Positions 7,208-60,916 of a DNA stretch of 64,000 nt are shown piece after piece. The notes under the pieces were generated by a model. The model saw nothing but the letters and a program-made list of their open reading frames with translations, had not been told where the DNA came from and ran no database searches. The stretch comes from an uncultured Bacteroidota bacterium (GTDB lineage Bacteria; Bacteroidota; Bacteroidia; Bacteroidales; B18-G4). The translations under genes were made by a program, and so were the position numbers. Numbering within the stretch: position 1 is the first letter of the stretch; each line of letters starts with the position of its first letter. The stretch is from assembly GCA_963793485.1 (NCBI GenBank), contig CAWCAB010000001.1, forward strand, positions 270,534-334,533, in the 5' to 3' direction.

Positions 7208-7260
7208 ATAAGTTCAGTACTTAATTGCGAAAATACTTAAAATTAGCTTCAATTGCATTT

Positions 7261-10411: not shown

Positions 10412-10412
10412 C

Positions 10413-10489: not shown

Positions 10490-10501
10490 GTATCTTGTTA
10501 T

Positions 10502-10891: not shown

Positions 10892-11022
10892 AACAATTAG
10901 GTTATTTGGTTTCCCCAATACAGGAAATTAAGAAATTCTTAAATTTTTTGTTGACAGATCCCTAAAAACTTTTCGACAGCCACCAGCCACCAGCTCCCAG
11001 CAAACAGAATTCCCGAACTCTC

Positions 11023-13373: not shown

Positions 13374-13444
13374 TCAATTATTTACGACCTTAACTTTAAA
13401 CTAAACAATGTAGGAGGATTTAAGTTCAATTATGGATGATGGGC

Positions 13445-13598
13445 ATTAGGCATTGGGCGTTAGGCGTTAGGCGTTAGGCAGTAGGCAGTAGGCGGTATGC
13501 GGTATGCAGTAAGCAATAAGCAGTAGGCAGTATTAACCATGTAGCCATGTAGCCGCTTTCCCTCGCCCCCCGTCCCTCGTCCCCCGTCCCGCATCCAG
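13445..13598. repeat. heptanucleotide tandem array, 22 in-phase units
   Basis: attaggc attgggc gttaggc x3 agtaggc x2 ggtatgc x2 agtaagc aataagc agtaggc agtatta accatgt agccatg tagccgc tttccct cgccccc cgtccct cgtcccc cgtcccg catccag. Confidence 0.95.
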
Positions 13599-13751
13599 GA
13601 AACTATAATCCGTATTTATCGTATTTAAGAGACAGGGGGATTTGTTAATTACCCCGGATACATCTATGACTTAAAATGGGCAGGATATTTCATATCAGGC
13701 AACCATCAGCATGTGTATTGGCATTATTTATAATGTTCATGTTCACTGGCT

Positions 13752-18132: not shown

Positions 18133-18174
18133 GGATTTTTTGGATTTTGATTTTTGGATTTTGGATTTTCCAAG
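18133..18174. repeat. heptanucleotide array immediately 5' of tRNA-Ser
   Basis: ggatttt ttggatt ttgattt ttggatt ttggatt ttccaag. Confidence 0.85.
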
Positions 18175-18177: not shown

Positions 18178-18267
<90 letters not shown>

Positions 18268-18273
18268 GTAAAA

Positions 18274-18301
18274 GTTTTGGGTGTTGAGTTTTGGGTTTTG
18301 A
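18274..18301. repeat. heptanucleotide array immediately 3' of tRNA-Ser
   Basis: gttttgg gtgttga gttttgg gttttga. Confidence 0.85.
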
Positions 18302-18472
18302 ATTATTATCAATTAACTTATACCTTAAACTCTAAGCCGATCGTTCTTTAACAGGTACATTTAAAATTGTACATACAGAATACAGAATTGTAAATTATTC
18401 GGGGTATAGCCCTTCGGCATGCTCAGGATAAACTCCGTCCGGTTAGCGGAGTAAAATAAATAACGAATAGTA

Positions 18473-18589: not shown

Positions 18590-18658
18590 TGCCCGGAAAC
18601 TGCAAGCTTGCTTGTAAGTTTTTGGGCATGAAAAAAGACCATAAGGAGCGAAGCGAGT

Positions 18659-19172
18659 GGGCTTTTGTTTATTGTACCCCCCCCAAGGGATCAGCGAGCG
18701 AAGCGAAGCTAATCCTACCCGAGAAGTGCCTAAAGTATTGGAGTGCCTAGAGTGCCTAAAATGAAGGAGGGCCTTTTGTTGTTGTACCCCCCCCAAGGGA
18801 TCAGCGAGCGAAGCGAAGCTAATCCTACCGAGAAGTGCCTAAAGTATTGGAGTGCGCTAGAGTGCCTAAAGTTAAGCAGTGGGCTTTTGTTGTTGTACCA
18901 CCCCCCAAGGGATCAGCGAGCGAAGCGAAGCTAATCCTACCCGGGAAGTGCCTAAAGTTTGGAGTGCGCTAGAGTACTTAGAGTTTTGCGGGCTTTTGTT
19001 GTTGTACCACCCCCCAAACGGATCAGCGAGCGAAGCGAAGCTCATCCTACCGAGAAGTGCCTAAAGTACTTGGAGTGCCTAGAGTGCCTAAAATGAAGCG
19101 AGTGGGCTTTTGTTTATTGAGCCACTTCCCAAGGGATCAATTTCACGAAGTGGAGTTAATCCTACTACCCCA
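18659..19172 (+). repeat. tandem array of a ~110-nt unit (four full units of 110/112/109/114 nt plus a divergent partial fifth)
   Basis: Units start at 18659, 18769, 18881, 18990 and 19104. Consensus: gggcttttgttgttgtaccccccccaagggatcagcgagcgaagcgaagctaatcctacccgagaagtgcctaaagtattggagtgcctagagtgcctaaaatgaag. Unit lengths are not multiples of 3. Confidence 0.95.
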
Positions 19173-20602: not shown

Positions 20603-20675
20603 GGAAGCGAATCTAATCCTGGACAGAAGTGCCTAAAGTACTTGGAGTGCCTGGAATGACGCTTTTATTGTTGTT
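20603..20675 (+). repeat. dispersed partial copy of the 110-nt tRNA-Pro-islet unit
   Basis: ggaagcgaatctaatcctggacagaagtgcctaaagtacttggagtgcctggaatgacgcttttattgttgt aligns with the central and 3' part of the tandem unit. Confidence 0.8.
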
Positions 20676-21320: not shown

Positions 21321-21421
21321 AGCTCCACTATTTGAGGTTAATAGCCATTGATTAAGCAGAGCATTTGGAGGGTTCTCCTTTGGAGATGTAAATATACTAA
21401 ATCACAGAGGCTTAGTCAAGG
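21321..21421 (-). promoter_or_regulatory. conserved promoter/5'-leader cassette, copy C2
   Basis: Sense strand: ccttgactaagcctctgtgatttagtatatttacatctccaaaggagaaccctccaaatgctctgcttaatcaatggctattaacctcaaatagtggagct-ATG. Confidence 0.5.
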
Positions 21422-21504
21422 TTTTGAGTGTTGGGTGTTGGATGTTGAATTATTTTCGATTTTCGATCCTCGATTTTCGATCCTCCTTGTTCCTCTGTTC
21501 TCTA
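21421..21504. repeat. heptanucleotide tandem array, 12 units
   Basis: gttttga gtgttgg gtgttgg atgttga attattt tcgattt tcgatcc tcgattt tcgatcc tccttgt tcctctg ttctcta. Confidence 0.95.
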
Positions 21505-22146: not shown

Positions 22147-22247
22147 AGCTCTACTATTTTAGGTTAATAGCTTATGATTAAGCAGAGTATAAGGAAGGTT
22201 CTCCTATGGTCCTGTAAAGATACTAAATCGCAGGGCCAGAATCAAGG
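22147..22247 (-). promoter_or_regulatory. conserved promoter/5'-leader cassette, copy C3
   Basis: Sense strand: ccttgattctggccctgcgatttagtatctttacaggaccataggagaaccttccttatactctgcttaatcataagctattaacctaaaatagtagagct-ATG. Confidence 0.5.
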
Positions 22248-25841: not shown

Positions 25842-25941
25842 AGCTCTACTATTTTAGGTTAATCGCTTTTGATTAAGCAGAGCGTAAGGAGGATTCCCCT
25901 TGGTGGTGTAAATATACTAAATCACAGGGCGATAAGCAAGG
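25842..25941 (-). promoter_or_regulatory. conserved promoter/5'-leader cassette, copy C4
   Basis: Sense strand: ccttgcttatcgccctgtgatttagtatatttacaccaccaaggggaatcctccttacgctctgcttaatcaaaagcgattaacctaaaatagtagagct-ATG. Confidence 0.5.
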
Positions 25942-26071
25942 TGTTAGGTCTTGGGTGCTAGGTGTTAGGTGTTGGATGCTGGATGCTGGATGCTAGATGC
26001 TGGATGCTGGATACTGGATACTTGATATTCGATACTCGTTGCTCGATACTCGATATTCCATGTCCGTTATT
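25939..26071. repeat. heptanucleotide tandem array, 19 in-phase units
   Basis: aggtgtt aggtctt gggtgct aggtgtt aggtgtt ggatgct x3 agatgct ggatgct ggatact x2 tgatatt cgatact cgttgct cgatact cgatatt ccatgtc cgttatt. Confidence 0.95.
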
Positions 26072-28176: not shown

Positions 28177-28217
28177 AGCGCTACTATTTTAGGTGAGGCT
28201 TTTGATTAAGCAGAGCA
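28177..28217 (-). promoter_or_regulatory. conserved leader cassette, copy C5 (3' part only; promoter part replaced)
   Basis: Sense strand: ...ctgctctgcttaatcaaaagcctcacctaaaatagtagcgct-ATG. The gtgatttagtatatttaca block is absent. Confidence 0.4.
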
Positions 28218-28239
28218 GTGGGTTTCCCGGTCCCCTTCA

Positions 28240-28309
28240 TGATTTTGGAAGATGGATGTTGGATGATAGATTATTTCATCATTCCATGTTCCCTGTTCTT
28301 TATTCGTTA
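28240..28309. repeat. heptanucleotide tandem array, 10 units
   Basis: gattttg ggaagat ggatgtt ggatgat agattat ttcatca ttccatg ttccctg ttcttta ttcgtta. The last unit contains the stop codon at 28307-28309. Confidence 0.9.
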
Positions 28310-29857
28310 TTCAACCAGCAACTTCTGCCTCACCTTCCTTCCCTCAACCATCACCTCCACGATGTACATGCCTGCCTGAAAGTGTGAGATGTCTACAGTA
28401 CCATTCTCAGGAAGGGCTTTCATTACCTGCTGACCAGTGAGGGTGTATATAATTAACTCATCTACCTCTCTGCCTTCGTCAAGTGAAATATTTAGCTCCT
28501 TATAGGCAGGGTTGGGATATAACACTAGATTGTTCTTGAGATGAATACCATCGATTACTCCTGCATGAGCTAAACAAGAATCATACACTTCTTCCTGACT
28601 ACTGCAACCATCTGCGTTACCATGAAGATTAACTTCTCCACCAGCTGCAGCAAGATAATCACAAATACTCTTTACATCACAGGTAGATAAATTTTTGTTT
28701 GCCCAAACAGTTACATCTGTTATTGAAGCTGCAGAAATATTGTCTAATCCTTCTAATGATGCCAATGTATCGTTTAAAATAATGTGAAGACCACCAACCG
28801 AAGTCAGTCCCTCCAGTCCCGTCAGGCTGGTTAATAAAGGATTACATACATATGCCCATTCCCCGATATGAAGGCTCCCACTAATGGAAGTCAGTTCGCT
28901 TAAGCCTATGAGGTTAGTAATATCATTGTCGCCGGAAATGACGATATCACCTCCAATTTCAGTACAACCAGGGTAGTTGGATTGAAAATCATCAATGTCG
29001 CTTTGACTTAAGAAGTAATAATTCCCAAAAGGCAGACAGGGTAAAGAAATGCCACAAGCATTTGCTATTTCTTTAGGACTATTACACCCCAGCGCGTTAC
29101 TATGTATTTCAACCCTGCCTTTGGGATTTTCAAGGTAACTGCATATACTTTGTGATTCGCAATTAGACAAAGAATTATTGTATCTGATAATCATGTTTCC
29201 ATCAATCAACAATCCGCTGTTCAATCCTGTAAAACTTTCTAAGCTAATATTACCTTGAATACTAACCTTCCCCCCAATATAGGTAAGCCCTCCTAAGCCC
29301 GTTAAAGAAGTTAAAGACGAATTCCCAGCTGTTCCAAATACGAAGTCCTTATCAACAGCATAACCAATGTTGAGAGTTTCACCTATTGTAGATAAGTTAT
29401 CAAGGCCAGCTAGACTGGACAGGGAATCATTACAATATATAGATAGACTTCCTCCAATCGAAGTAAGATTGCTTAATGCAGATAAATCACTCAAGTTTGG
29501 ATTGCTTTGGCATTCTACCGGTTGAAATGGCATTGCATTCATACTCCACCCCCCAATATTTAAACTTCCTCCAATATTAGTCAGGCTTTCCAAGCCCCTG
29601 AGATTTGTCAGGGCAGTATAGCCGATGCGCAGGGTTCCTCCGATTGTTCTTAGAACACTTAATCCATTCAGATTGGCTATGTCATAACCCTCTATTTCGA
29701 CACCACCTTCAATCTCCGTACAATTTGGATAGTTGATTTGAAAGCTGTCAATCTGTGCCTGTGTTTCAAATCTGATACCCTCAGGCAAACAGGATTGGGA
29801 CGATACAGTTATCTGAAAGCATACCAGGACAAGGACGATAATAGATAATTTTCTCAT
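28307..29857 (-). CDS. T9SS cargo: leucine-rich-repeat (receptor L-domain-like) protein
   Basis: 516 aa. Two lobes of LxxLxxIGGxLxIxxNxxLxSLxGL repeats separated by Cys-rich modules. CTD: LYPNPAYKELNI...GMYIVEVMVEGRKVRQKLLVE. Confidence 0.8.
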   Translation of the reverse strand: MRKLSIIVLVLVCFQITVSSQSCLPEGIRFETQAQIDSFQINYPNCTEIEGGVEIEGYDIANLNGLSVLRTIGGTLRIGYTALTNLRGLESLTNIGGSLNIGGWSMNAMPFQPVECQSNPNLSDLSALSNLTSIGGSLSIYCNDSLSSLAGLDNLSTIGETLNIGYAVDKDFVFGTAGNSSLTSLTGLGGLTYIGGKVSIQGNISLESFTGLNSGLLIDGNMIIRYNNSLSNCESQSICSYLENPKGRVEIHSNALGCNSPKEIANACGISLPCLPFGNYYFLSQSDIDDFQSNYPGCTEIGGDIVISGDNDITNLIGLSELTSISGSLHIGEWAYVCNPLLTSLTGLEGLTSVGGLHIILNDTLASLEGLDNISAASITDVTVWANKNLSTCDVKSICDYLAAAGGEVNLHGNADGCSSQEEVYDSCLAHAGVIDGIHLKNNLVLYPNPAYKELNISLDEGREVDELIIYTLTGQQVMKALPENGTVDISHFQAGMYIVEVMVEGRKVRQKLLVE

Positions 29858-29947
29858 GGCTCCACTATTAAAAGTTAACAGCTATTGATTAAGCAGAGCA
29901 TAAGGAAGGTCCTGTAAAGATACTAATTTACAAGGCCATAATCAAGT
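29858..29947 (-). promoter_or_regulatory. conserved promoter/5'-leader cassette, copy C6
   Basis: Sense strand: acttgattatggccttgtaaattagtatctttacaggaccttccttatgctctgcttaatcaatagctgttaacttttaatagtggagcc-ATG. Confidence 0.5.
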
Positions 29948-30081
29948 TGGGTTGACAGCACACCATATTCTCCAGCTGGCGCTCGTCCGTGACGAGTGCC
30001 TTATGTGAGATCCTCGCCAGCGGGGCGAAGCGCTAATTACGATAGCGCCAATTACTGATTTACTTCCGAATTCTCCTTCCC

Positions 30082-31617: not shown

Positions 31618-31759
31618 AGTTTTCCAATCAAATAATTGAGTTTATCCTCGAATATAAAAATAACAATTTATTTAGAGAATTCGGGCAGAAGGGGATAGGG
31701 GAAACAGGGAATAAGAGTGCCTAGAATAGAGCTTTTGTGCTTGAGCCTTCCCTTACTGA

Positions 31760-32943: not shown

Positions 32944-34273
32944 CTATTTCTTAGAAGGGACTTTTGCCAGACGAAGGATGGTAATTCCAATAAAAGCAGC
33001 GATCAATGAAGCTGCCAGGATACCTACTTTGGCAATCTCCTCATATTCGCGATTTTCAAACCCAAGATCCGCGATGAACATCGACATGGTGAAGCCAATT
33101 CCTGCCAGGAAAGCCATGCCATAGATATGCTGCCAGCCCACACCCTCAGGCAATCGGGCCAGTTTTAATTTAACGAAAATCCTGCTGAACAGACTGATCC
33201 CGATGAATTTGCCAAGTACCAATCCACCCATGATGCCCAATGAGATGGGATGGAAAAGCATATAGAAAAAATTGCCTTCGATATGAACTCCGGCATTGCT
33301 CAGGGCGAAAATAGGAAGTATAAAGTACGATAGATACCGGATGCAGGGAATGCTCAAGCCTTTGTAAAGGAGTATTTGCATCATCAACATGTTGCCCGAT
33401 CTGGCTGATCACCTTCGACTGAGCTTCTGTAAGCAGGGATTTACTGTTAGCAGCAGTTTTTTTGAAGGTGTCAAGGCAGGCATAGAGTCTTTGAATGAAT
33501 GTTTTTTCATCAATTCGTGGCCTGACAGGAATGGTAAATGCAATGAGTACCCCGGCTATTGTAGCATGTACCCCGGAAAAGAGGAATGAAGTCCAGACGC
33601 CCAGCCCCCCAACAATTGCATAAAATATGGCATTACGAACACCCAATCGATTTGCTGCGACTAAAACACCCAGGAAGAAGGCTGCATTAATCAGCTCAAG
33701 GAGATTGATGGATTCTGTATAAAAAATGGCAATAACCATTATGGCGCCTAGATCATCGGCAATGGCAAGTGCGGTGAGGAAGATCTTAAGGCTGACAGGC
33801 ACCCTTTTCCCTAACATGGCCATCAGCCCGAGGGCAAAGGCAATATCCGTTGCCATCGGGATCCCCCAGCCGTTTAGATACTGTGGTGTCTGGAATTCGA
33901 TAAGAACATATATGAGTGCAGGCACCACCATTCCACCAATAGCAGCCACGATTGGTAATCCTGCTTTTTTAAAGGTAGATAACTCGCCTGCAAGTACCTC
34001 TCTTTTGATTTCAAGACCGATGATAAAGAAAAACGTGGCCATCAAGCCATCATTGATCCAGTGATGTAAGGATGTGGTGATGTTGAAGTCGCCGAAGCTG
34101 AAGCCCATTTGCAGCTCATGCCACAGGTAATGATAAGACTCATGCCATCGTGAATTAGCCCAGATAAGGGCAATGACCGTGATCCCGATAAGAATATATC
34201 CCCCGATGCCTTCTTCCTTGATAAAAGAAAAAATGTTAAACCTTGATTCAGTCTTGAGACGCTCCTTTGCCAT
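32944..34273 (-). pseudogene. nhaA: Na+/H+ antiporter NhaA gene interrupted by a 4-bp tandem duplication
   Basis: ORFs 33170-34273 and 32944-33390 overlap in different frames. The NhaA-like sequence switches frame at LEHSLHPVS / YFILPIFALSNAGV. gatagata at 33329-33336 is a GATA duplication (TATC on the sense strand). Confidence 0.75.
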
Positions 34274-36084: not shown

Positions 36085-38265
36085 ATGAAAACTATGAACA
36101 AATTATGTGTATTTCTATTTCTTTTCTTCCTGTGTATTGCATCAGTATCAGCCCAGGATATCTATGAAGCTGTGACCAATGGTGACCTCGTCATGGTCAA
36201 AGAGATCCTGGCAGAGAATTCTGATCTCCTCAATGAAAAGAATTCAAACGATCTGACTCCCCTCAACCTGGCGTGCGAACGCGGACAGGCAGGGATAGTA
36301 GACTTTTTACTCAATCAAGGTGCCGATCCTTACCTGGGAGACAGGGAAAACTCACAGCCTATACATCTGGCTGCGATCAGTGGAAGTATTGAGTGTATGG
36401 ATCTTCTGCTTGACAAGGGGGTGGATATCAATCTTCAGGATGATTTTGGGATGACGCCATTATTATTTGCCTTGAGCCGCCGGCAAGCAGATATGGCCGG
36501 GTATATCATTGAAAGGGGAGCTGATATCGATTTGCGTGCTAATGTAGGCTGGGCACCTATCCACCTGGCTATAGTGACCAGGAGCGATGCTGTTGTCAAA
36601 CAACTACTTGAACAGGGGGCAGAGGTGAATGTATCACTGGAAACAGGCATGACCCCACTGCACAGTGCGGTTTCCTACGGGAACACTGAAATAGCCAAAC
36701 TCCTCATACAACATGGTGCTGATATTAAAGCGGAAAACAATCATGGTGAACAGCCTGTAAACATGGCATTGAACCCTAACACTTATGATGCACTTGTATA
36801 TCTGGTGGAAAAAGGTGCCGATATTAACCACTGTAATGCCAGGGGCGCACACCTTCTGCATAATATTGCCGGCAGGGGCACCGCTATTGAGAATGCCACT
36901 TTCCTGCTTGATCACGGAGCGGATGTTAATGTTCAGGATGATTTTGGCCGGACACCATTGTTCTTTACTACCTGGTCGGAGAATCCTGATTTAATGAGTA
37001 AGTTTTTGATCCTTAATGGTGCCAATGTGAATCCGGTGAATTGCAAAGATGTTCGGACAGGTGTCTGTTTTACAGATTTCAGTACGCCTTTACATGGCGC
37101 TGTCAGGCATGGTCAGCTTGAACTTGCGAAAAATCTGGTCATGAATGGCGCAAGAGTGAATGTATATAATGATGAAGGCCTGACTCCACTGCATTATGCT
37201 GTGATGAGCGGGAATCCCGAGATCGTGCAATACCTGATCGATCATGGTGCTTTTCTGAATGTACCGGAAAAAGAACTGGGAAGCACAGAATTGCATCTCT
37301 CAGTAGCCATGGGATATACTGATATTACAGATATTCTCCTGGAGCATGGTGCGGCAATGGATGTGGCCGATTATAATGGTAAGACACCTTTTGATTATGC
37401 CATGTACTATAATCATAAGGGTCTTGGATACGACCTACTGGCCAATGGTGCCGATGATTCTAAACTGGGCGAATACCTGAGTAAGCCTGATGAAGTGGCT
37501 GCGGAAGTCGCTCCCGGTGAAGCCAGGGTATGGTTCCTGGGGCATAGCGGGTGGGCTGTTAAGACTCAGAACCACTTTCTGGTCTTCGATTATTTCTGTA
37601 ACACATGGGATAGGAAACCCGACGACTCCTGCCTGGCTTCCGGTTGCATCCTTCCCGAAGAGATCAAAGACATGAATGTAACGGTCTTCAGTACCCATAG
37701 TCATGGCGATCATTATGATGCCAGGATCTTTGACTGGAAAGAGACCATTCCCGACATCGAATATGTTCTTTGCTGGAATCAGCCTACCGATGGGCATGAG
37801 TATACACTAATCCCTGTGCATGAAGAAAAAATGATTGAGGACATGAATGTTTATGTCCATCATTCAACGGACCTTGGAGGAGGTTATCTCATAGAAGTGG
37901 ATGGCCTGACCATTTTACATATGGGTGACCATGCCAACGGAGAAGACGGACTGATGGCTGAGTTCACCGATGAGATTGACATAATAAAGGAAAAGGGATA
38001 CGATATCGACATCATGTTTGCCGGTATCCGTGGCTGTAGTCTGGGGGAACCCGAACAGGTGAAAAGAGGACTTTATTATACACTTGAGAACCTTCAGCCA
38101 GAACTCTTTGTGCCCATGCATAATGGCTCACATTCATTTCAATACAAAGCTTTTGTTGAAACAGCGAAGGAGGATGGCTTTGAGATGGATATGATCTATC
38201 CGGTACACAAGGGAGATAGATTTACCTATTCGAATACAGAGAAAGAACAGATTAGCAAGCTTTGA
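36085..38265 (+). CDS. secreted ankyrin-repeat protein fused to a C-terminal metallo-beta-lactamase-fold domain
   Basis: 726 aa with a signal peptide (MKTMNKLCVFLFLFFLCIASVSAQ). About a dozen ankyrin repeats (TPLNLACERGQAGIVDFLLNQGADP...). C-terminal MBL-like FLGHSGWAV...STHSHGDHYD...LHMGDHANG...PMHNG. Confidence 0.8.
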   Translation: MKTMNKLCVFLFLFFLCIASVSAQDIYEAVTNGDLVMVKEILAENSDLLNEKNSNDLTPLNLACERGQAGIVDFLLNQGADPYLGDRENSQPIHLAAISGSIECMDLLLDKGVDINLQDDFGMTPLLFALSRRQADMAGYIIERGADIDLRANVGWAPIHLAIVTRSDAVVKQLLEQGAEVNVSLETGMTPLHSAVSYGNTEIAKLLIQHGADIKAENNHGEQPVNMALNPNTYDALVYLVEKGADINHCNARGAHLLHNIAGRGTAIENATFLLDHGADVNVQDDFGRTPLFFTTWSENPDLMSKFLILNGANVNPVNCKDVRTGVCFTDFSTPLHGAVRHGQLELAKNLVMNGARVNVYNDEGLTPLHYAVMSGNPEIVQYLIDHGAFLNVPEKELGSTELHLSVAMGYTDITDILLEHGAAMDVADYNGKTPFDYAMYYNHKGLGYDLLANGADDSKLGEYLSKPDEVAAEVAPGEARVWFLGHSGWAVKTQNHFLVFDYFCNTWDRKPDDSCLASGCILPEEIKDMNVTVFSTHSHGDHYDARIFDWKETIPDIEYVLCWNQPTDGHEYTLIPVHEEKMIEDMNVYVHHSTDLGGGYLIEVDGLTILHMGDHANGEDGLMAEFTDEIDIIKEKGYDIDIMFAGIRGCSLGEPEQVKRGLYYTLENLQPELFVPMHNGSHSFQYKAFVETAKEDGFEMDMIYPVHKGDRFTYSNTEKEQISKL

Positions 38266-38341
38266 TATGAAATATGAAATCTGAATTCTGAAATCTGATA
38301 TACCTCAAACCTCAAATATCAAATATCAGATATCAGATTTC
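38265..38341. repeat. heptanucleotide tandem array, 11 units, filling the spacer exactly from stop to stop
   Basis: atatgaa atatgaa atctgaa ttctgaa atctgat atacctc aaacctc aaatatc aaatatc agatatc agatttc. The flanking stops are at 38263-38265 (+) and 38342-38344 (-). Confidence 0.95.
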
Positions 38342-39271
38342 CTAACGTCTGTAATTAATGATGTATGTATCCAGCTCTTCTATGCTTGATTCAAAATCAA
38401 AAGCATCGTTAACGCGGAAATAATTTCCAACATCCAGTGTGGAGCCATATGCGTATTTGGCGATCTCAAGCTTATCTTCCTCAAAATCGAACTGCTCCAT
38501 GATTTGCATGACCTGGGAGCTCAGCACGCAATTCTTATCCAGGACCTGTTTAGCAAGCAATAGCTTGCTGTCGGAGAAGTCCTTGCTGGCTATAGAATGC
38601 AGTGCCATTTGAAAATCGGCATCTTCCATAGGGTAGGGGCAGCCATAGTATCCATCATAGCCTGGCAGTACATACACTACTTCTGTTGTACCACCCACGA
38701 CTGCACCTGTACTGGTCGATGTAGTGGTTGTTGTTGTAGTGCTTGTGCTCGTTGTGCTGCTTTCATTAATATTCACGTTCATGCTTACTCCGCTCATATT
38801 GGTGTTCACATTCACGTTTGTTCCTGTTCCCGGCGCTGCTACCTGGGTTGTGGTGGTGGTTGAAGTAACGCTAACTGAAGCTGCCGGTGGAGTGGTCGAA
38901 TAAACATGCACTACCTGCGTAGTCGGTGGAGGTGGAGCCTGTGCAATTGGCACTGAGTTCTGAAAACGCAATACGTACTCTCCTTTTTTATTGGCTTTTA
39001 CCATGTAAGTGTCCTGTGAGCTTCCATTCTGGTAATATATGGTCTTGTCGAGATCGGGGATCTCTCCTTCAAAGATGATCTTAAGCTTATAGCTGGGCGC
39101 TATAAGGTCTGTGATCAGAACGTTGGTTTCAGGATCTGCATTTTGCAGTACCCCATTCAGAACCACCTGAAAACGTTCACCGTTCTCAGAGAAAACGATC
39201 AGGTTTGACTTTTGTGAAAAGGCAGGAAATAGCAGTCCTGCGAGGAGTAAACTCAGTAGTACTTTTTTCAT
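38342..39271 (-). CDS. secreted DUF4476-domain protein with Thr/Ser-rich linker
   Basis: 309 aa. Signal peptide, low-complexity TSTTTTTQ...TTTTTTTSTST linker, C-terminal DFSDSKLLLAKQVL...FDFEEDKLEIAKYAY typical of DUF4476. Confidence 0.65.
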   Translation of the reverse strand: MKKVLLSLLLAGLLFPAFSQKSNLIVFSENGERFQVVLNGVLQNADPETNVLITDLIAPSYKLKIIFEGEIPDLDKTIYYQNGSSQDTYMVKANKKGEYVLRFQNSVPIAQAPPPPTTQVVHVYSTTPPAASVSVTSTTTTTQVAAPGTGTNVNVNTNMSGVSMNVNINESSTTSTSTTTTTTTSTSTGAVVGGTTEVVYVLPGYDGYYGCPYPMEDADFQMALHSIASKDFSDSKLLLAKQVLDKNCVLSSQVMQIMEQFDFEEDKLEIAKYAYGSTLDVGNYFRVNDAFDFESSIEELDTYIINYRR

Positions 39272-39385
39272 AGTTATGGATTTGGCGTTGATTTAGCTTT
39301 ACTTAAAAAAGTGTGCCAAAAATCGGAAATTCCAACAAACTATTCCTACAATTGTTTAATATGGAAAGAGTTTAAATAGATTATA

Positions 39386-39434
39386 GGTGCTGGGTGCTGG
39401 GTGCTGGGTTCTGGGCACTAGCTGTTAGTAGCAG
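39386..39434. repeat. heptanucleotide tandem array, 7 units
   Basis: ggtgctg ggtgctg ggtgctg ggttctg ggcacta gctgtta gtagcag. Confidence 0.9.
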
Positions 39435-40195: not shown

Positions 40196-40378
40196 ATTAA
40201 GTAATTTAAGAGTTGGTACTCATTTTACTAAGATTTCTGTTTTGTCTGAAGGTACACAAGGGCAATGATGAGATCCGTTGTGGCTTAATTCTCTGCCTAT
40301 AAAATTAGTTAAATCCCTGACTTATTCTTGATTTATTTTTATCAAATTTAAAAAATCATGTTGTCTGCCAGATAGAAA

Positions 40379-40434
40379 CAGCCCCCAGCCCCCAGCTATC
40401 AGCCTACTGTCAACTGTCAACCGCCAACTGTCAA
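40379..40434. repeat. heptanucleotide tandem array, 8 units
   Basis: cagcccc cagcccc cagctat cagccta ctgtcaa ctgtcaa ccgccaa ctgtcaa. Confidence 0.9.
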
Positions 40435-40455
40435 CTTCTTACTATATTTGTAATA

Positions 40456-41874: not shown

Positions 41875-43207
41875 ACATTGCATGTATCCTGTTCTGGCTA
41901 TCCTATTTATAGGGATGGGGATGGTGTCATATGCACAGGATACTACTGCCGTGAAGAAAGGCTGGTCTATTGTGCCTTTTCCTGTGCTGGGCTATGATGC
42001 CGACATGGGATTCCAGTTTGGAGCCCTGGGCAGTGCCTTCTACTATGGTGATGGCTCCACTTATCCAGAATACCTGCATTCCATTTATGCGGAGGCCTCC
42101 TGGTTCACGAAGGGGAGTGCAGTGTATCAACTGTTTTACGATTCCAAGCATTTGCTTCCATGGAACATCAGGATCACCGCCGACTTTGCTTACCTGACTG
42201 AAAAGGCGCTGGATTTTTATGGTTTTAACGGCTACCAGTCAGCTTACCATCCTGAACTGGAGGATGATGGATCCGATGACTATATTTCAAGGGTCTATTA
42301 CCGCCAGGAGAGGAAGCTTTTTCGTACCGTCATCGATCTGCAGGGGAATCTTGCCGGTCCAAAAATCAGGTGGATAGCAGGTTTCAGCCTCTTCGATATC
42401 CGGACAGCAACAGTGGATGTAGAGAATATCAACAAAGGCAAGAAAGAGAGTAAGATGCTGCCCGATACGACTTTATTGTATGATTATTATGTAGATTGGG
42501 GACTGATTGAGGAGGACGAGAAGAATGGGGGGAGCACCAAGATGATCAAAGTTGGACTGGTCTTCGATTCGCGCGACAATGAACCTGCACCAAACCGGGG
42601 CGTATGGTCGGAAGTATTATTCCTGACGGCGCCCGGCTTCATGGGCAACAAACCATATGCTTTCAATAAGCTGGCAATTACGCATCGTCAATACATCAGT
42701 ATTGTTAAAAACAAATTGGTTTTTGCCTATCGCCTCAGCATGCAAACTACCATTGGTAAGCAGGCTCCTTATTATATCCTTCCATATCAGTTCAGTTCTT
42801 TTACCAAAACCACTAAGCCTGATGGCCTTGGCGGTTCCAACACCATTCGTGGAGTACTGCGTGACCGTATTGTTGGAGATGGTACTGCATACGGCAATCT
42901 TGAAATCCGTTGGAAGTTCCTGAAAACCATACTGTTTAATCAGAATCTCTACCTGGCAGTATATGCTTTTTATGATGCCGGACAGGTGATCCGCGAAAGA
43001 GATTTGGACATGAGTATGGTGCCTCCTGAAGATATGACATCAGGCAACTATTTCGACCAAAAGAATGATGGCCTGCACCAGGGCCTCGGACTGGGCTTAC
43101 GCGTTGGGCTGAATGAAAACTTCGTACTGGTGGTCGATTATGGCCGCGCCCTGGATAGGAGGGATGGGGTTTCGGGGCTGTATATTGGCGTAGGAAACAT
43201 TTTTTAG
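41861..43207 (+). CDS. outer-membrane beta-barrel protein, Omp85/surface-antigen-like barrel without obvious POTRA domains
   Basis: 448 aa. Signal peptide, alternating beta-strand pattern, terminal aromatic (GLYIGVGNIF). Overlaps the symporter gene by 14 nt. Confidence 0.5.
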   Translation: MKKLKHCMYPVLAILFIGMGMVSYAQDTTAVKKGWSIVPFPVLGYDADMGFQFGALGSAFYYGDGSTYPEYLHSIYAEASWFTKGSAVYQLFYDSKHLLPWNIRITADFAYLTEKALDFYGFNGYQSAYHPELEDDGSDDYISRVYYRQERKLFRTVIDLQGNLAGPKIRWIAGFSLFDIRTATVDVENINKGKKESKMLPDTTLLYDYYVDWGLIEEDEKNGGSTKMIKVGLVFDSRDNEPAPNRGVWSEVLFLTAPGFMGNKPYAFNKLAITHRQYISIVKNKLVFAYRLSMQTTIGKQAPYYILPYQFSSFTKTTKPDGLGGSNTIRGVLRDRIVGDGTAYGNLEIRWKFLKTILFNQNLYLAVYAFYDAGQVIRERDLDMSMVPPEDMTSGNYFDQKNDGLHQGLGLGLRVGLNENFVLVVDYGRALDRRDGVSGLYIGVGNIF

Positions 43208-43208
43208 T

Positions 43209-43250
43209 CATATATCATATAGCATTGAGCATTGAACATGTAGCATTTAG
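43209..43250. repeat. heptanucleotide array (left arm flanking the four-helix-bundle gene)
   Basis: catatat catatag cattgag cattgaa catgtag catttag. Confidence 0.9.
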
Positions 43251-43630
43251 TGTTTTTTATTTTGCTCTTTTCTCCCTATCATGTTTTTACGTGTTGATTC
43301 TATTGTCCTGTACATAATGGCAATAAGCTGATCACATTCGATATAGCATAAATTATATGCTTCTTCCTTTGACTCTGGGACTACATTTGTCATTAACTTC
43401 AAACACACTTTGGTTTCTCGGAGTTCTTTTAAGACCAACGTCGTTTTATGAATGAAATCCCTTTTTGATTCTGCTGATTGAGCTTCCGCATAGTTCAAGG
43501 CAGCACTGGTTGAGGATCTCATGATCTGAGAGATCAAATGCTTTGATAAACAATTTTTAACAAGCAAATTACAAAGCGTATCAATCGATAGTGCAAGCTG
43601 GATTAATCGGGATTCTATCTCTTTTTTCAT
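43247..43630 (-). CDS. four-helix-bundle protein (23S rRNA intervening-sequence protein / Avd-like family)
   Basis: Start at the internal Met (ATG at 43628-43630): MKKEIESRLIQLALSI...MRSSTSAALNYAEAQSAESKRDFIHKTTLVLKELRETKVCLKL... This is the characteristic TIGR02436-type pattern. The 5' extension in the ORF track (to 43837) runs through a heptamer array. Confidence 0.8.
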   Translation of the reverse strand: MKKEIESRLIQLALSIDTLCNLLVKNCLSKHLISQIMRSSTSAALNYAEAQSAESKRDFIHKTTLVLKELRETKVCLKLMTNVVPESKEEAYNLCYIECDQLIAIMYRTIESTRKNMIGRKEQNKKH

Positions 43631-43713
43631 ACTAGCAGTATTGTCTACTATATTAATACCCAAAACTGCAAAATGTCCACACTCAAACAAACATAAATTG
43701 TACAAAAAGTACC

Positions 43714-43769
43714 ATATGCTAAATGATAAATGTTCAATGCTAAATGCTATATGAATAATGCTTATTTTA
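43714..43769. repeat. heptanucleotide array (right arm, inverted relative to the left arm)
   Basis: atatgct aaatgat aaatgtt caatgct aaatgct atatgaa taatgct tatttta. The reverse complement (agcattt, agcattg...) is a cyclic permutation of the left-arm units (catttag, cattgag). Confidence 0.9.
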
Positions 43770-44543: not shown

Positions 44544-45167
44544 ATGAAAAGAATAATAATACTATCACTGATCATATTAGCCACTGCCGGAACTGCTTCT
44601 TCGCAGTCAATCTTTAGTTTAGCCTATGAGCCATCTACTCCGCTGGGTGATATGAAAAACTTTATCAGCCCGACCAGCCTTCGCGGATTAAGTGCCTCTG
44701 CCGACTGGTATCTGAATAAGAGGCTTACTGTAGGAGGTACTCTGCAATGGACCGGATTCTACGAAAAAGATGAAAGGTACACCTGGATATTCGATGATGG
44801 GGCTGTTACTGCCACTGCATGGAAGGAGTTTTATCTGATTTCTATCCTGGCAAATGTCAAATACTATTTTAATGATGACGATGGGAGCTTATTTGCTCCT
44901 TATGTAGGCCTTGGAGTAGGGACAATGTATGTCGATCAAAATGCCCAGGTGGGTACTTATGAATTTGATGATAAGTCATGGAAATTTGCCATTGCACCTG
45001 AAGTCGGGACACGCCTGCCTCTGGGACTTGAAAAAACCTGGGGACTTAACTTCAAGATCAGATACCAGATGGCATTTTATGACAAAAATGATATCAACCT
45101 CCTGAACTTCCTCAACTATAGTGTAGGAGTTTACTGGAAACTATATAAGCGAGGGGAAAGATATTAG
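44544..45167 (+). CDS. outer-membrane beta-barrel protein
   Basis: 207 aa. Signal peptide and alternating hydrophobic beta-strand pattern. Confidence 0.5.
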   Translation: MKRIIILSLIILATAGTASSQSIFSLAYEPSTPLGDMKNFISPTSLRGLSASADWYLNKRLTVGGTLQWTGFYEKDERYTWIFDDGAVTATAWKEFYLISILANVKYYFNDDDGSLFAPYVGLGVGTMYVDQNAQVGTYEFDDKSWKFAIAPEVGTRLPLGLEKTWGLNFKIRYQMAFYDKNDINLLNFLNYSVGVYWKLYKRGERY

Positions 45168-45267
45168 ATTAGTGAATAGTGACTAGTACCTAGTTCCTAG
45201 TACCTAGTTCCTAGTACCTAGTTCCTAATTACTAATTACTAATTACTAATGACTAATGACTAATGCC
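45163..45267. repeat. heptanucleotide tandem array, 15 in-phase units
   Basis: attagat tagtgaa tagtgac tagtacc tagttcc tagtacc tagttcc tagtacc tagttcc taattac x3 taatgac x2 taatgcc. Contains the + stop (45165-45167) and the hydF stop plus its last codons (45253-45267). Confidence 0.95.
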
Positions 45268-46464
45268 TAAAAACGGCTCCATCGCTCTTTCATAAATACC
45301 ATTTGTATAAGCAATGGTCATACCATAATTGCTAACAGGCACACCGGCATTGATAACATCTGCCAGACGGTTGCTCAGTTGCTTTCGGGTGATCATGCAG
45401 CCTCCGCATTGTATCGCTAATGAATAGTCTTTGACAGGCCTGGGAAATTCGTCCAGTCCGGCAACAATGTCAAAATGTATGTCCTTCCCGCTAAATTCTT
45501 TCAGCCATGCCGGGATCTTATGCCTTCCGATATCATCACAGTTTACCTGGTGCGTGCATGATTCCAATATGAGTACCCTGTCACCATCGTTGAGTTTTCC
45601 CAGGGCAGGAGTACCTTCCATATAAGCATTGAAATCACCTTTTCTGCTCGCCAGAAGGATGCTGAATCCCGTCAGGGGAATATCCCTGGGAACGATCTTA
45701 TCCATCTTATGGAACATCTGGCTGTCGGTGATAGCCAGACGTGGTTTGATTCCTGTATTTTTAAGGAATTCTTCCACCTCTGTTTCCTTCAAAACAATAT
45801 TTATACAATCATTGTCGAGTACATCTCTGATGGCCTGAACCTGAGGCAGGATCATCCTTCCTTCAGGAGCTTCAAGGTCAATAGGGGTGATCAGCATAAC
45901 TATGTCGCCGGGATTAAGGATATTACCAAGCAGGGAAGTGCTGGTATATGCTGATTTGGGCATCAAGCCGGTAATTGTTTCAATCAACTTCTCATAACCC
46001 ATTTCATTAAAACAACTGAATTCAATAATTTCAGTGCTATATTCTCCTTTGATATAGTTTTTAAGAGTATAGTTCAGCGGATTTTTATCCGACTTGTTGT
46101 GTACAAATAGGAAAGGGATGTTGTAATGATTGAACTGATTTGCCAGTTCTTTCTCATATTTCCCGGTCTTATTATCCGTGATCACAATAATGGCCATGTC
46201 GATGGCTTTGATCACCTGCAAACTCTTCTTAACCCTGAGTTTGCCCAGGTCACCATGATCATCTATCCCAGCAGTGTCGATGAGGATGGCAGGCCCTATG
46301 CCGAAGATCTCCACCGATTTCTTAACAGGATCAGTTGTGGTCCCCGCCTGTTCTGAGACGATGGCAGTATCCTGTCCTGCAATAGCATTGATCAAAGAGC
46401 TTTTTCCATTGTTCCTTCTCCCAAAGATCCCAATGTGCGGCTTATTTTCCCTTCCTTTTTTCAT
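45253..46464 (-). CDS. hydF: [FeFe]-hydrogenase H-cluster maturation GTPase HydF
   Basis: 403 aa. G1 GRRNNGKSS, G3 DTAG, NKSD. C-terminal Cys cluster (CTHQVNCDDIGR...QCGGC). Confidence 0.9.
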   Translation of the reverse strand: MKKGRENKPHIGIFGRRNNGKSSLINAIAGQDTAIVSEQAGTTTDPVKKSVEIFGIGPAILIDTAGIDDHGDLGKLRVKKSLQVIKAIDMAIIVITDNKTGKYEKELANQFNHYNIPFLFVHNKSDKNPLNYTLKNYIKGEYSTEIIEFSCFNEMGYEKLIETITGLMPKSAYTSTSLLGNILNPGDIVMLITPIDLEAPEGRMILPQVQAIRDVLDNDCINIVLKETEVEEFLKNTGIKPRLAITDSQMFHKMDKIVPRDIPLTGFSILLASRKGDFNAYMEGTPALGKLNDGDRVLILESCTHQVNCDDIGRHKIPAWLKEFSGKDIHFDIVAGLDEFPRPVKDYSLAIQCGGCMITRKQLSNRLADVINAGVPVSNYGMTIAYTNGIYERAMEPFLGISH

Positions 46465-52576: not shown

Positions 52577-52628
52577 TATTCCCTGTTCGTTATTCATATT
52601 CTTGTTCCTTGTTCCTTGTTCTTGATTC
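52573..52628. repeat. heptanucleotide array inside the hydrogenase operon (between the hydA stop and the sensor-kinase start)
   Basis: tcattat tccctgt tcgttat tcatatt cttgttc cttgttc cttgttc ttgattc. Confidence 0.9.
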
Positions 52629-54352
52629 TATTTAAGCACTTCTCTCTCTTCATAAGACGTATGCAACAACTCATGGCTCTTATGCCCACAAGGGGAGCCC
52701 AGGTATCTGTCATAGATCTCAATGACATCCGGGTTCTTATGCGATACTTTGATGCTTTCATTTTCATCGATGGTGTAGAGGCTTTTCATCCTGGCGATGA
52801 TGGCTTCCTTTTCAGCACCTATCCTCTGTCCGCCTCCTGCGATACATCCGCCCGGACAAGCCATCACTTCGATAAAGTGGATGTCGTTCCTGCCATTCCT
52901 GATCTCATCAAGGAGGATCCTGGCATTTTCCAATCCACTGACTACAGCTACACCAATGTCAAGGTCGCCGATCTGCAATCTGGCTTCTTTTCTTCCCTTC
53001 AGTCCCCTGATCTCAGGTACCTGGAAGTTCACCAGCTCTTTGCCTGTGATCTTGTAGTATGCGGTACGAATAGCAGCTTCCATAACACCTCCGGATGCTC
53101 CAAACAGCTTTCCTGCTGTACTCCTGAAGCCCATTGGAGAATCAGCCATCTCCGGCTCAAGCTTATGAATATCCACCCCATGCATTTTAATGAAGTCGGC
53201 TAGCTCACGGGTGGTGAGGACAGCATCCACATCTGTGATGCCGTGCCTGGTCATCTCATTGCGCTGTGCCTCAAATTTCTTTGCGGTACAGGGCATGATG
53301 GAAACAGAATATATATCTTCAGGCTTGATTCCTTCGCTCTCTGCCCAGTAGCTTTTGATTACTGCACCCATCATTTGCTGAGGTGATTTACAGCTAGAGA
53401 GATTAGGAATAAAATCAGGAGCAAACTCTTCCGCATATTTGATCCACGCAGGGCAGCAGCTTGTGATCATCGGCATGGTGCCACCATCCTGTATTCTCTG
53501 TATAAGTTCCGCTGACTCTTCCATGATAGTGAGGTCGGCAGAGAAAGTAGTGTCGAAGACGGTCTTGAAACCGATCTTCCTCAGTGCTGCATTCAGAATC
53601 CCGTTGATATCTTTTCCCGGCTCCATACCAAAGGCTTCGGCCAGCGAGACAGAGATAGCAGGAGCATACTGTACGACCAGTGTTTTAGATGTATCGCTCA
53701 GGGCTTCGGTGATCTCTGCAAAGTGATTCTTCTCCGTCAGGGCACCGGTAGGGCACACCATGATGCACTGTCCGCAATTTACACAGCTTGAGGTATTCAG
53801 TCCCCCATTGAAGGCCGTACCGATCACGGTTTTGCTCCCACGGTTGATAAAATCAATGGCTGAAACGCCCATCACTTCTTCACATACCCTGATGCACCTT
53901 CCACAGAGGATGCATTTGTCAGGATCGCGAACGATGCTCGGACTCGACTGGTCGAGGCTGAAGTTGTTCTTTATACCATGAATCCTGCGTTCAGTCACAT
54001 TCAATTGTTTAGACAGGCCCTGGAGTTCACAATTCCCATTGCGCACGCAATAGAGGCAGTCATCGGGATGATTCGAAAGCAGTAACTCTACGATGGTCTT
54101 CCTCGATTCGATTACCTTATTGGAGTGTGTTTGCACTTTCATACCTTCTGAAACAGGGAAAGAGCAGGAAGATACCAGCTTCCCACTATCTTCCATTTCT
54201 ACAACACACATACGGCATGATCCGCTCGGGAACATGTCCTTCATATGGCAGAGCGTAGGAACATGGATGCCATTCCTGCTCAGGACATCAAGGATGGTCT
54301 CACCATTTTCAGCACTTACTTTCTTATTATTTATTTCGATGTCAAAACTCAT
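52628..54352 (-). CDS. hydA: [FeFe]-hydrogenase catalytic subunit (M3-type, HndD/HydA-like)
   Basis: The start is taken at MSFDIEINNKKV (ATG at 54350-54352). N-terminal 2Fe-2S and 4Fe-4S domains. H-cluster motifs TSCCPAW, MPCTAKKFE and EVMACPGGCIAGGGQ. Confidence 0.95.
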   Translation of the reverse strand: MSFDIEINNKKVSAENGETILDVLSRNGIHVPTLCHMKDMFPSGSCRMCVVEMEDSGKLVSSCSFPVSEGMKVQTHSNKVIESRKTIVELLLSNHPDDCLYCVRNGNCELQGLSKQLNVTERRIHGIKNNFSLDQSSPSIVRDPDKCILCGRCIRVCEEVMGVSAIDFINRGSKTVIGTAFNGGLNTSSCVNCGQCIMVCPTGALTEKNHFAEITEALSDTSKTLVVQYAPAISVSLAEAFGMEPGKDINGILNAALRKIGFKTVFDTTFSADLTIMEESAELIQRIQDGGTMPMITSCCPAWIKYAEEFAPDFIPNLSSCKSPQQMMGAVIKSYWAESEGIKPEDIYSVSIMPCTAKKFEAQRNEMTRHGITDVDAVLTTRELADFIKMHGVDIHKLEPEMADSPMGFRSTAGKLFGASGGVMEAAIRTAYYKITGKELVNFQVPEIRGLKGRKEARLQIGDLDIGVAVVSGLENARILLDEIRNGRNDIHFIEVMACPGGCIAGGGQRIGAEKEAIIARMKSLYTIDENESIKVSHKNPDVIEIYDRYLGSPCGHKSHELLHTSYEEREVLK

Positions 54353-57346: not shown

Positions 57347-57516
57347 GGTGATTTGTTTTAATAGTTTATGAAAAATTTATGATGCTAAATTAGTCCGGGA
57401 TAGGGGTATGGCACAAGGTGGGAAAGTACCGTTTTTGGGGTGTAAAGAAGTATGACAATAAACGGTAAAAACAGGAAGGGATGAAAGTGAAAACCAGTAA
57501 AAAACTGCAAATTTAA

Positions 57517-57544
57517 GGTGTTGGGTGTTGGGTGTTGGGTGCTA
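57517..57544. repeat. heptanucleotide array, 4 units
   Basis: ggtgttg ggtgttg ggtgttg ggtgcta. Confidence 0.85.
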
Positions 57545-57597
57545 GATTGGCATGTAAGGTGTAGATTTACAGTCTTATGCGTTAATACGCGCACGTA

Positions 57598-57665
57598 CTT
57601 TACCCCCTGGTCCCTTCTCCTTGAGGAGAGGGGGCAAAGGGGGACAGGGGGTTAAGGGGGTGAGG
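57598..57665 (+). other. C-rich/G-rich palindromic element with a four-run G5 tract (G-quadruplex motif at 57630-57660)
   Basis: tttaccccctggtcccttctccttgaggagaGGGGGcaaaGGGGGacaGGGGGttaaGGGGGtgaggtg. cccttctcc and ggagaggg can pair. Confidence 0.6.
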
Positions 57666-57667
57666 TG

Positions 57668-60822: not shown

Positions 60823-60912
60823 GTGAGTAAGGAGTAAACCGAATACCGAAGAACGAAGAACGAACACCGAAGATTAACTTCAGATTTCAGATATCAGGTA
60901 TCAGATATCAAA
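60822..60912. repeat. heptanucleotide tandem array, 13 units, filling the convergent spacer
   Basis: ggtgagt aaggagt aaaccga ataccga agaacga agaacga acaccga agattaa cttcaga tttcaga tatcagg tatcaga tatcaaa. Confidence 0.95.
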
Positions 60913-60916
60913 GTTC

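Follow-up and report, generated by a model that had tools for sequence, protein, structure and literature searches.

Intergenic repeats with a unit of seven nucleotides (nt) have been known from cyanobacteria since about 1990. The units of these short tandemly repeated repetitive (STRR) sequences are few and fixed: CCCCAGT, TTGGTCA and CAACAGT. To our knowledge, STRRs that fill convergent spacers from stop codon to stop codon have not been described. The function of these 7-bp repeats is unknown, and roles in transcript stability or translational coupling have been proposed (PMC2670836). Among the long simple sequence repeats (LSSRs) of prokaryotes, heptamers form the commonest class and are proposed to arise by polymerase slippage (Mrazek 2007, as summarised in PMC4679880). 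In the same summary, LSSRs have units of 5–11 nt and are intergenic and phylogenetically patchy. TAACTGA repeats occur in Beggiatoaceae, cyanobacteria and some Bacteroidetes; on the sense strand they stop all three frames, and hence necessarily lie at the ends of open reading frames (ORFs). Other heptamer arrays were noted in spacers of Gramella and Aequorivita (MacGregor 2015, PMC4679880). The intergenic heptamers GGGAATC/GGGGAYT of Xanthomonas and Nostoc lie within 50 bp of a stop codon or overlap it, their G-rich strand being the sense strand there and the antisense strand where they lie upstream of an ORF. They often occur as convergent inverted pairs, and related species keep them in the same places but with different lengths. 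In Xanthomonas, starts and stops of transcripts coincide with the repeats somewhat more often than with controls; involvement in ending transcription has been suspected but not shown (Rehm et al. 2015, PMC4692102). The present subject is a set of heptamer arrays in 64,000 nt of DNA (the window) from an uncultured bacterium of the Bacteroidales (lineage B18-G4; assembly GCA_963793485.1, contig CAWCAB010000001.1, positions 270,534 to 334,533, forward strand), with the convergent spacer 38266-38341 as the focal case. Intergenic heptamer repeats as such are known from cyanobacteria and Xanthomonas. Here they take a lineage-wide form that fills convergent spacers from stop to stop.

The arrays of the window show several likenesses to the described repeats. 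Like the heptamers of Xanthomonas and Nostoc, they are intergenic, abut stop codons with the G-rich strand in sense, are G-rich in antisense before starts and form inverted pairs. The described genomes each have one dominant G-tract unit, preferably in four copies, and form G-quadruplexes (PMC4692102), whereas the window has dozens of units, up to 18 per array, fills whole spacers and belongs to another phylum. The four or more G3 tracts of a G-quadruplex are absent, as units such as TGAAATC, GAGTAAC, CTAGTAC and CAACACC contain no G3 tract. Because most units lack G-tracts and yet obey the same positional rules, these rules cannot depend on quadruplex formation, which argues that heptamer arrays in general follow the rules on stop codons and polarity. 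STRRs resemble the arrays in that both are tandem 7-bp units, lie in non-coding DNA, are restricted to a lineage and can in some cases form hairpins. With LSSRs the window arrays share head-to-tail 7-nt copies beyond chance, non-coding position and a patchy distribution among lineages. However, LSSRs are a statistical class without positional rules, and the top genomes in the PMC4679880 summary include no Bacteroidota. TAACTGA repeats are likewise direct heptamer repeats in intergenic DNA, but they come in sets of 2–6 copies of one unit, for the most part immediately upstream of starts; the window arrays avoid starts and abut stops. Bidirectional intrinsic terminators also sit between convergent stops, and two of the window arrays form dyad-symmetric hairpins, but the arrays lack a GC-rich stem and flanking A/U tracts and are mostly unfolded. 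A constant body, as in repetitive extragenic palindromic (REP) sequences, bacterial interspersed mosaic elements (BIMEs) or MITEs (miniature inverted-repeat transposable elements), was not found, units vary by site, and no transposase was searched for.

The focal spacer consists of repeats throughout. Its parts and flanking genes are as follows.

36085-38265, plus strand: gene for a protein with ankyrin repeats and a metallo-beta-lactamase (MBL) fold (Pfam); native stop directly before the array
38266-38341, no strand: focal array, 76 nt or 10.9 heptamers, filled from stop to stop, lag-7 match 0.80
38266-38300, plus strand: left arm, units TGAAATA/TGAAATC/TGAATTC running with the ankyrin-MBL gene
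38301-38341, minus strand: right arm, reading GAAATC TGATATC TGATATT TGATATT TGAGGTT in the sense of the DUF4476 gene
38342-39271, minus strand: DUF4476 gene (Pfam)

The bounds are the TGA stop at 38263-65 on the plus strand and the TAG stop at 38342-44 on the reverse strand. The left arm reads TATGAAA TATGAAA TCTGAAT TCTGAAA TCTGATA on the top strand, and the right arm continues with TACCTCA AACCTCA AATATCA AATATCA GATATCA GATTTC. Adjacent units are identical in at least five of seven positions, with the junction from 38294 to 38301 as the single exception. Both arms belong to one unit family (TGAAATC/TGATATC); they run in opposite directions, each reading with its own gene, and so form an inverted pair. 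The arms can pair into a 25-bp AU-rich hairpin (fold z-scores -4.3 and -3.5). In the left arm, TGA shuts all three frames. An earlier note on this DNA had described the spacer of 76–77 nt as 11 in-phase heptamers. It is indeed all heptamers (76 nt, 10.9 units), but phase has no meaning across its middle, where the two arms of the inverted pair meet. Since any rotation of a unit is valid, phase continuity across unlike unit types is meaningless, and it has meaning only for gradually morphing units. Both flanking genes are genuine, with native C-terminal ends. The ankyrin-MBL protein and its two closest relatives, encoded by the related loci L001 and L002, share their last residue (L726), and the array therefore begins right behind the native stop.

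Heptamers fill six of the nine well-defined convergent spacers in the window, counting 10412-10501, which is nearly filled. The lag-7 match fraction is 0.68–0.85 in the six filled spacers versus 0.21–0.34 in the unfilled ones. Besides the focal array, the convergent arrays are these.

4916-5029, no strand: GAGTAAC-type units, then CAGTATC/TAGGATC; overlaps both ORF ends
10412-10488, plus strand: single-arm array, GAGGAAC/GAAGACC grading into GAGTAAC/GAATAAC; RNA unstructured (z +0.2 and +1.4)
43206-43255, no strand: fills the 39-nt spacer 43208-43246 between an Omp85-family gene and the 23S_rRNA_IVP gene
45166-45271, no strand: array between the genes for an outer membrane protein (OMP) and HydF, 15 units of AATAGTG, CCTAGTA/CCTAGTT, ACTAATT and ACTAATG; folds with z -3.5 and -3.0
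60823-60916, no strand: GTGAGTA in two copies, NACCGAA/GAACGAA in five, a 7-nt linker, and TTCAGAT/ATCAGAT in five; fold not significant

The earlier note had named two of these. The spacer at 60822-60916, said to be filled between its stops, proves to be 94 nt of heptamers (two plus five units, then five units) apart from the 7-nt linker and 3 nt at the end. Its right-hand units read ATCTGAA in the sense of the minus-strand gene. It is flanked by the ORF 60034-60822 on the plus strand (stop 60820-22) and the ORF 60917-61534 on the minus strand (stop 60917-19). The word 'nearly', used for 10411-10502, is also apt: the array follows the stop at 10409-11 and ends at 10488, and roughly 13 unique nt remain ahead of the stop at 10502. 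Three filled convergent spacers extend that list (4952-5006, 43208-43246 and 45168-45252).

The period of seven is specific. With a match threshold of 75%, 22 arrays of period 7 are found (1282 nt), and periods 5, 6, 8 and 9 yield 0, 1, 1 and 1 arrays. Tandem Repeats Finder reports 0% indels in nearly all period-7 rows. Composition-matched shuffles give about ten false positives under the most permissive detector, and these are short (21 nt). Arrays of at least 28 nt number 23 in the window, for a total of 1274 nt or 11.7% of its non-coding DNA. The window is 84.4% coding and 15.6% non-coding, and the midpoints of all 23 arrays fall in the non-coding part; 105 of the 1274 nt overlap ORF ends, and none of the 23 lies within a reading frame proper. 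Arrays occur in 6 of 9 convergent, about 11 of 19 tandem (about 58%) and 4 of 10 divergent spacers (40%), and the spacer types differ in the fraction that is filled. Units are graded, successive ones shifting gradually along an array. Thirty distinct units are perfectly doubled somewhere in the window, and four of them are common to two arrays. There is no fixed unit, or small set of units, for the genome as in STRR1-3, GGGAATC or TAACTGA. An Rfam scan of the window found two tRNAs only, and the arrays had no Rfam match.

Array borders differ between the two ends of genes. When the window and five annotated related loci are pooled, the median distance from an array edge to the nearest stop codon is 0.5 nt (n=32; 15 values are negative, the stop lying inside the array), against 94 nt to the nearest start codon (n=17; Mann–Whitney p=1.2e-4). 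The start-side ends lie about 55–165 nt before ATG, where the promoter/leader region begins. A conserved element of about 100 nt, of the form …CTTGATTATGGCCCTGTGATTTAGTATNTTTACA…GCTCTGCTTAATCAAAAGCTATTAACCTAAAATAGTAGAGCT-ATG, is found upstream of five genes on the minus strand, from 20.7 to 29.9 kb. At least three of these five genes encode Por_Secre_tail (type IX secretion) cargo proteins. From its sequence and place the element looks like a shared promoter plus leader. The element and three arrays in this region are located as follows.

21321-21418, 22147-22239, 25842-25938, 28177-28245 and 29858-29950, minus strand: copies of the conserved ~100-nt element, directly upstream of genes
21420-21485, minus strand: tandem-spacer array, CGAAAAT/CGAGGAT in the sense strand, then CAACACC abutting the conserved promoter element
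25936-26063, minus strand: tandem-spacer array of 18 units, in the sense strand GAGTATC beside the stop (26074), CAGCATC and CAACACC
28245-28314, minus strand: two adjacent arrays, one GAATAAC-type that overlaps the stop at 28307, one CATCCAA-type toward the next promoter

An array abuts the upstream edge of the element exactly in four of the five spacers; the 25936-26063 array, for one, stops at it. Arrays thus span the distance from the upstream stop to the downstream promoter/leader, or from stop to stop where a promoter is absent. On the stop side some of them enter the gene. In the DUF2304 gene, the array encodes the last ~11 codons together with the TAA stop; the Pfam domain ends at residue 110 of 123. 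HydF (45253-46464), whose domain extends to residue 397 of 403, takes its last ~6 codons and stop from the array; its tail reads LGISH* in the window versus LGVGH* in the related locus L009. In practical terms, arrays can add short array-encoded tails to proteins.

Arrays also have a strand polarity that follows the genes. Counted over hand-picked arms, some of them mutually orthologous and hence not fully independent cases, stop-proximal arms have more G than C on the sense strand of their gene in 22 of 28 (p=0.004). Start-proximal arrays have more C than G on the sense strand of the gene that they precede in 16 of 19 (p=0.004), and the two classes differ clearly (Mann–Whitney p=6e-6). An orientation-free automatic test of the top strand agrees with this: GC skew is higher in the left half of 16 arrays and in the right half of 6 (Wilcoxon p=0.008), and purine content is higher in the left half of 18 and the right half of 6 (p=0.013). 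The polarity inverts inside a single spacer, flipping from one arm to the other, and replication direction is therefore ruled out as its cause. Stop triplets in stop-proximal arms number 0.56 per 7 nt in sense versus 0.25 in antisense (p=0.0045), an enrichment confounded by purine richness; stops fall in every frame in 13 of 28 sense arms versus 4 of 28 antisense ones. Because stop-proximal arms carry sense stops, an ORF ends natively just before the array or within its first few units. Seeding of arrays by in-register duplication of the stop codon was also considered and is unsupported, as the stops at 38263 and 45165 sit 5 nt off the stop triplets of the array.

Related loci, denoted L001 to L016, show how the arrays evolve. 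HydF matches, at 100% identity, a protein on a 1.42-Mb NCBI/ENA contig of run ERR11523668, and its closest relatives are all from uncultured Bacteroidales. The spacer between the HydF and OMP genes takes the following forms.

Window: 85 nt, CCTAGTA/ACTAATT
L009 and L010 (HydF 86% identical): 62 nt, GCATTAG/GCGTTGG/GCACTAG; edges recognisably as in the window
L002 (HydF 77%): 408 nt, GATTCTT/GATTCTG at one stop, an 8-mer array of CTGAAACA at the other
L012 (HydF 75%): 83 nt, CGGCACC/CGGAACT
L011 (HydF 74%): 64 nt, three copies of GGGTTGA by one stop, 2.5 of CAAAGTT by the other

Heptamer arrays with largely unrelated units thus occupy this spacer in five related genomes, and in four the spacer is wholly or mostly array; in L002 arrays are confined to its two ends. 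A TGAAATC array also lies 3' of the DUF4476 stop, directly behind it in the window and 5–6 nt off in L010 and L002. Across the window, L009/L010, L002, L011 and L012, array position is conserved at the HydF–OMP spacer and the DUF4476 3' end, and length is variable. Elsewhere, the stop-to-start spacer 52598-52627 has an orthologue with CAAGTAA units in L009, a CAACTGT array lies upstream of the ankyrin-MBL gene in L003, and L014–L016 (HydF 70–72%) also bear arrays, including an 86-nt stop-to-start spacer made wholly of heptamers. Array density depends on lineage: it is 0 nt per kb in L013 (GCA_032250805.1), 2 in L011 and 14–20 in the window, L002, L014 and L015. The single array of at least 28 nt in the 21 kb of L011 contrasts with these last values, and its HydF–OMP spacer carries an array. 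L005–L007 are distant matches to the ankyrin protein and uninformative. The arrays of L009 and L010, which come from two samples, are identical. Arrays recur in independent assemblies (NCBI, JGI and Logan data), and short-read contigs end at or inside them, directly past gene ends (L001 at 3076, L008 at both ends, L010 at 10018). Since short-read contigs break there, the arrays are real, multi-copy sequence; a practical consequence is that they systematically fragment short-read assemblies of this clade at gene ends.

Smaller observations on these loci may be added. The 8-nt array of L002 (five copies of CTGAAACA, 9352-9393) abuts the HydF stop and is the sole clear non-heptamer array seen. 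The same enlarged convergent spacer holds 2.9 copies of a 38-nt repeat at 9091-9199. Positions 1-34 of L008 (a Logan contig from run ERR11523668) carry CAAGGAA in three copies, versus CAAGAA plus two copies of CAAGGAA at 52598-52631 of the window; this is a copy-number or unit variant, or an artefact of the contig end.

The possible role of the arrays in transcription termination was examined through RNA folding. Six convergent arrays were folded on both strands, and only 38266-38341 and 45168-45252 fold better than shuffled sequence. Their hairpins are long, dyad-symmetric and AU-rich and lack U-tracts. The remaining four have z-scores between -1.2 and +1.4. A U-tract scan at the six arrays gave nothing except weak array-internal matches, and the orthologous HydF–OMP arrays of L009, L011 and L012 have no significant fold. 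A hairpin terminator is thus rejected as the general mechanism, since it would apply to only two of the six convergent arrays, and orthologues do not preserve the fold; any function that the arrays may have at 3' ends or as insulators would not act through a conserved hairpin. In L003 and L004, where arrays are scarce or absent, a textbook bidirectional intrinsic terminator comes after the ankyrin-MBL gene; it has an A-run, a GC-rich stem and a T-run (fold z-scores -6.6 and -4.9). The window array therefore occupies the position where these relatives carry a terminator. Among 40 gene 3' ends of the window, a strict scan recognises classical terminators at no fewer than two to four. At 20 of the 40 it sees neither array nor terminator. 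It misses imperfect stems such as 9590-9625, and its terminator counts are lower bounds. With half of the 3' ends bare, the need for a terminator substitute is not evident. A Rho-dependent terminator would call for some 70 nt or more of unstructured RNA, rich in C and poor in G, downstream of the stop. Several arrays are unstructured, and start-proximal and distal halves have more C than G (mean G-C -0.19), but the stop-proximal halves have more G than C.

The arrays are on balance probably heptamer satellites of the LSSR/STRR type, generated by slippage, that saturate unconstrained spacer DNA. We infer slippage as the generator from the exact period of seven, the lack of indels and the one-base morphing of units. 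A clade of uncultured Bacteroidales would make the arrays, most likely by 7-nt replication slippage accompanied by local duplication and point mutation of units. They would take over any intergenic DNA that is free of other constraint, their borders being set by selection on coding sequence and promoters. On the stop side, the protection of coding sequence by selection, together with sense-strand stop triplets in the stop-proximal arms, would produce a sharp border. Convergent spacers contain no promoter or leader and are entirely free for the array, hence the exact fit from stop to stop. Unique spacer DNA, including a former intrinsic terminator, would be deleted without regrowth, whereas arrays would regrow. 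Arrays are long-lived at the same spacers while their unit sequences turn over. Directly observed are where arrays lie and end, how their units turn over and how their abundance depends on lineage. Several points weigh against this account. Neutral filler does not predict strand polarity, as seen in the 22 of 28 stop arms and the 16 of 19 start arrays. The array-poor L011 still keeps its HydF–OMP array, a hint of selection on position. Slippage inserts units within an array and does not overwrite its flanks, so that a deletion bias must be assumed to account for the total disappearance of unique flanking DNA. Slippage itself is read from the repeat structure.

The strongest competitor is a role in ending transcription, and here the evidence divides. 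The earlier note had proposed that arrays are generated or selected at transcript 3' ends, for example as terminator substitutes or as collision buffers between convergent transcription units. The hugging of stops by array edges, the polarity of the stop arms and the terminators of L003 and L004 at the place of the window array speak for that proposal; against an exclusive tie to 3' ends speaks the fact that tandem and divergent spacers, and both flanks of a tRNA, carry arrays too. In its full form, the arrays would be bidirectional terminators or insulators that have taken the place of the clade's classical intrinsic terminators, acting by Rho loading on unstructured periodic RNA, by a DNA-bound roadblock protein or sometimes by a long AU-rich hairpin. 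This is rather unlikely, although a good deal favours it: the terminators of L003 and L004 where the window has its array, arrays that abut stops with a polarity following the direction of transcription, positions kept while units turn over, the scarcity of classical terminators among the 40 3' ends, and the excess of transcript starts or stops at Xanthomonas heptamers (PMC4692102). Several arrays are less structured than their shuffles, among them the minus strand of 10402-10511 (-8.8 kcal/mol, z +1.4), which is pyrimidine-rich and G-poor in the manner of a Rho loading site. Of the six convergent arrays, however, most do not fold, and none has a U-tract or a conserved fold. Arrays also lie in divergent spacers and around a tRNA, where no gene transcript needs ending, and the bare 3' ends indicate that a terminator is not obligatory. 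Moreover, because the C-rich half lies on the far side from the stop, release of RNA polymerase by Rho would take place within the opposing gene. A bolder version holds that the arrays are position-maintained but sequence-independent punctuation, which took the place of hairpin terminators and ends or insulates transcription in both directions through Rho or a periodic binder. We consider it unlikely. If it were true, the polarity shared with Xanthomonas and Nostoc would reflect a general, transcription-coupled making or selecting of 7-nt repeats at gene ends, independent of G-quadruplexes. In any case the lineage is an extreme one and a natural experiment, in which spacers stay heptamer-filled at 74–86% HydF identity while units are replaced and sister lineages keep terminators.

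An RNA-level function is improbable. The arrays would be elements of 3'-untranslated regions or leaders that bind a cold-shock or S1-type protein, one per ~7 nt, and affect mRNA stability or translational coupling, as proposed in the literature for STRRs (PMC2670836) and TAACTGA repeats (PMC4679880). The sense-strand polarity suits such a role, as does the A/G-rich, unstructured array directly before the ATG at 52597, which lies in an operon-like cluster and is conserved in L009. Against it, at least 30 doubled units in the window and unrelated units at orthologous sites argue against a sequence-specific binder, and many arrays lie upstream of promoters and may not be transcribed. That unit number switches the expression of neighbouring genes, as in phase-variable contingency loci, is very improbable. 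Tandem repeats are slippage-prone, and in the few arrays that overlap ORF 3' ends a change of units would alter C-terminal tails. But no array stands in a reading frame proper, in four spacers the array ends upstream of the conserved promoter/leader, neighbours are housekeeping or metabolic genes as often as surface-related ones, and the L009 and L010 arrays are identical across two samples. Least credible of all is an origin as remnants or targets of MITE- or REP-like mobile elements, or as an assembly artefact. The breaks of the short-read contigs L001, L008 and L010 fit multi-copy sequence, but the arrays have no terminal inverted repeats, target duplications or constant body, their units vary by site, and the same arrays appear in independent NCBI, JGI and Logan assemblies. 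Whichever reading applies, the main value of the lineage is as a comparative system for the long-standing question of what intergenic heptamer repeats do.

The remaining arrays of the window are the following.

7293-7396, no strand: divergent mid-spacer pair, GTTGACA-type then CAGGATC-type, each C-rich in the sense of the gene that it precedes
10974-11003, minus strand: array after a stop, GCTGGTG in the sense strand, 19 nt past the stop at 11023
13439-13600, no strand: divergent-spacer pair, GGCGTTA/GGCAGTA in 13 copies, then TCCCCCG in five
18136-18172, plus strand: TTTTGGA array, ending 5 nt before the tRNA 18178-18264
18273-18304, plus strand: GTTTTGG/GGTGTTG array, beginning 8 nt past the tRNA 18178-18264
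39376-39419, minus strand: tandem-spacer array, CAGCACC in the sense strand, 53 nt past the stop and 104 nt before the DUF4476 start
40377-40438, plus strand: arrays of CAGCCCC and of CAACTGT, 17 nt upstream of an ORF that starts at 40456
43712-43754, no strand: ATGCTAA-type array, intergenic if the 23S_rRNA_IVP gene is cut back to match its Pfam domain and the 117-residue L010 orthologue in length
52598-52629, minus strand: stop-to-start array in a hydrogenase cluster, CAAGGAA units in the sense strand, filling the 30-nt spacer 52598-52627
57514-57545, minus strand: tandem-spacer array, four copies of CAACACC in the sense strand

Other repeats accompany the heptamers. A GC-rich palindromic element (…CCCCCTNTCCCC…GGGGANAGGGGG…GGGGGTGAGG) is found right behind stop codons in several related genomes, and is a second, REP-like class of intergenic repeat, separate from the heptamers.

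Window 57590-57667; L014 1448-1490, 4711-4790 and 5933-5990; L016 1211-1260, 1690-1750 and 10317-10380: copies of the GC-rich palindromic element

A GATCGNN-rich palindromic element (…CAGACGATCGGCGATGT…ACATCGC…GATCATCGTTCGG) occurs in several copies at 7216-7314 and 7681-8015 of L016, in spacers adjoining HydF. In the window, a tandem repeat of 110/222 nt (4.4/2.2 copies) at 18650-19139 lies 3' of two tRNA genes and holds the 9-mers AGTGCCTAG/AGTGCCTAA. Isolated copies of the motif AGTGCCTA are present in two further spacers (20625-20655 and ~31715-31730). The NhaA (Na+/H+ antiporter) gene at 32944-34273 on the minus strand is broken up into two ORFs that overlap and differ in frame (32944-33390 and 33170-34273), by a frameshift, as a pseudogene or through sequencing error. 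Finally, 6.8 copies of a 153-nt tandem repeat at 16517-17562, within the ORF 16450-17817, are coding and unrelated to the heptamers; they correspond to the FG-GAP-like protein repeats of a type IX secretion cargo protein.

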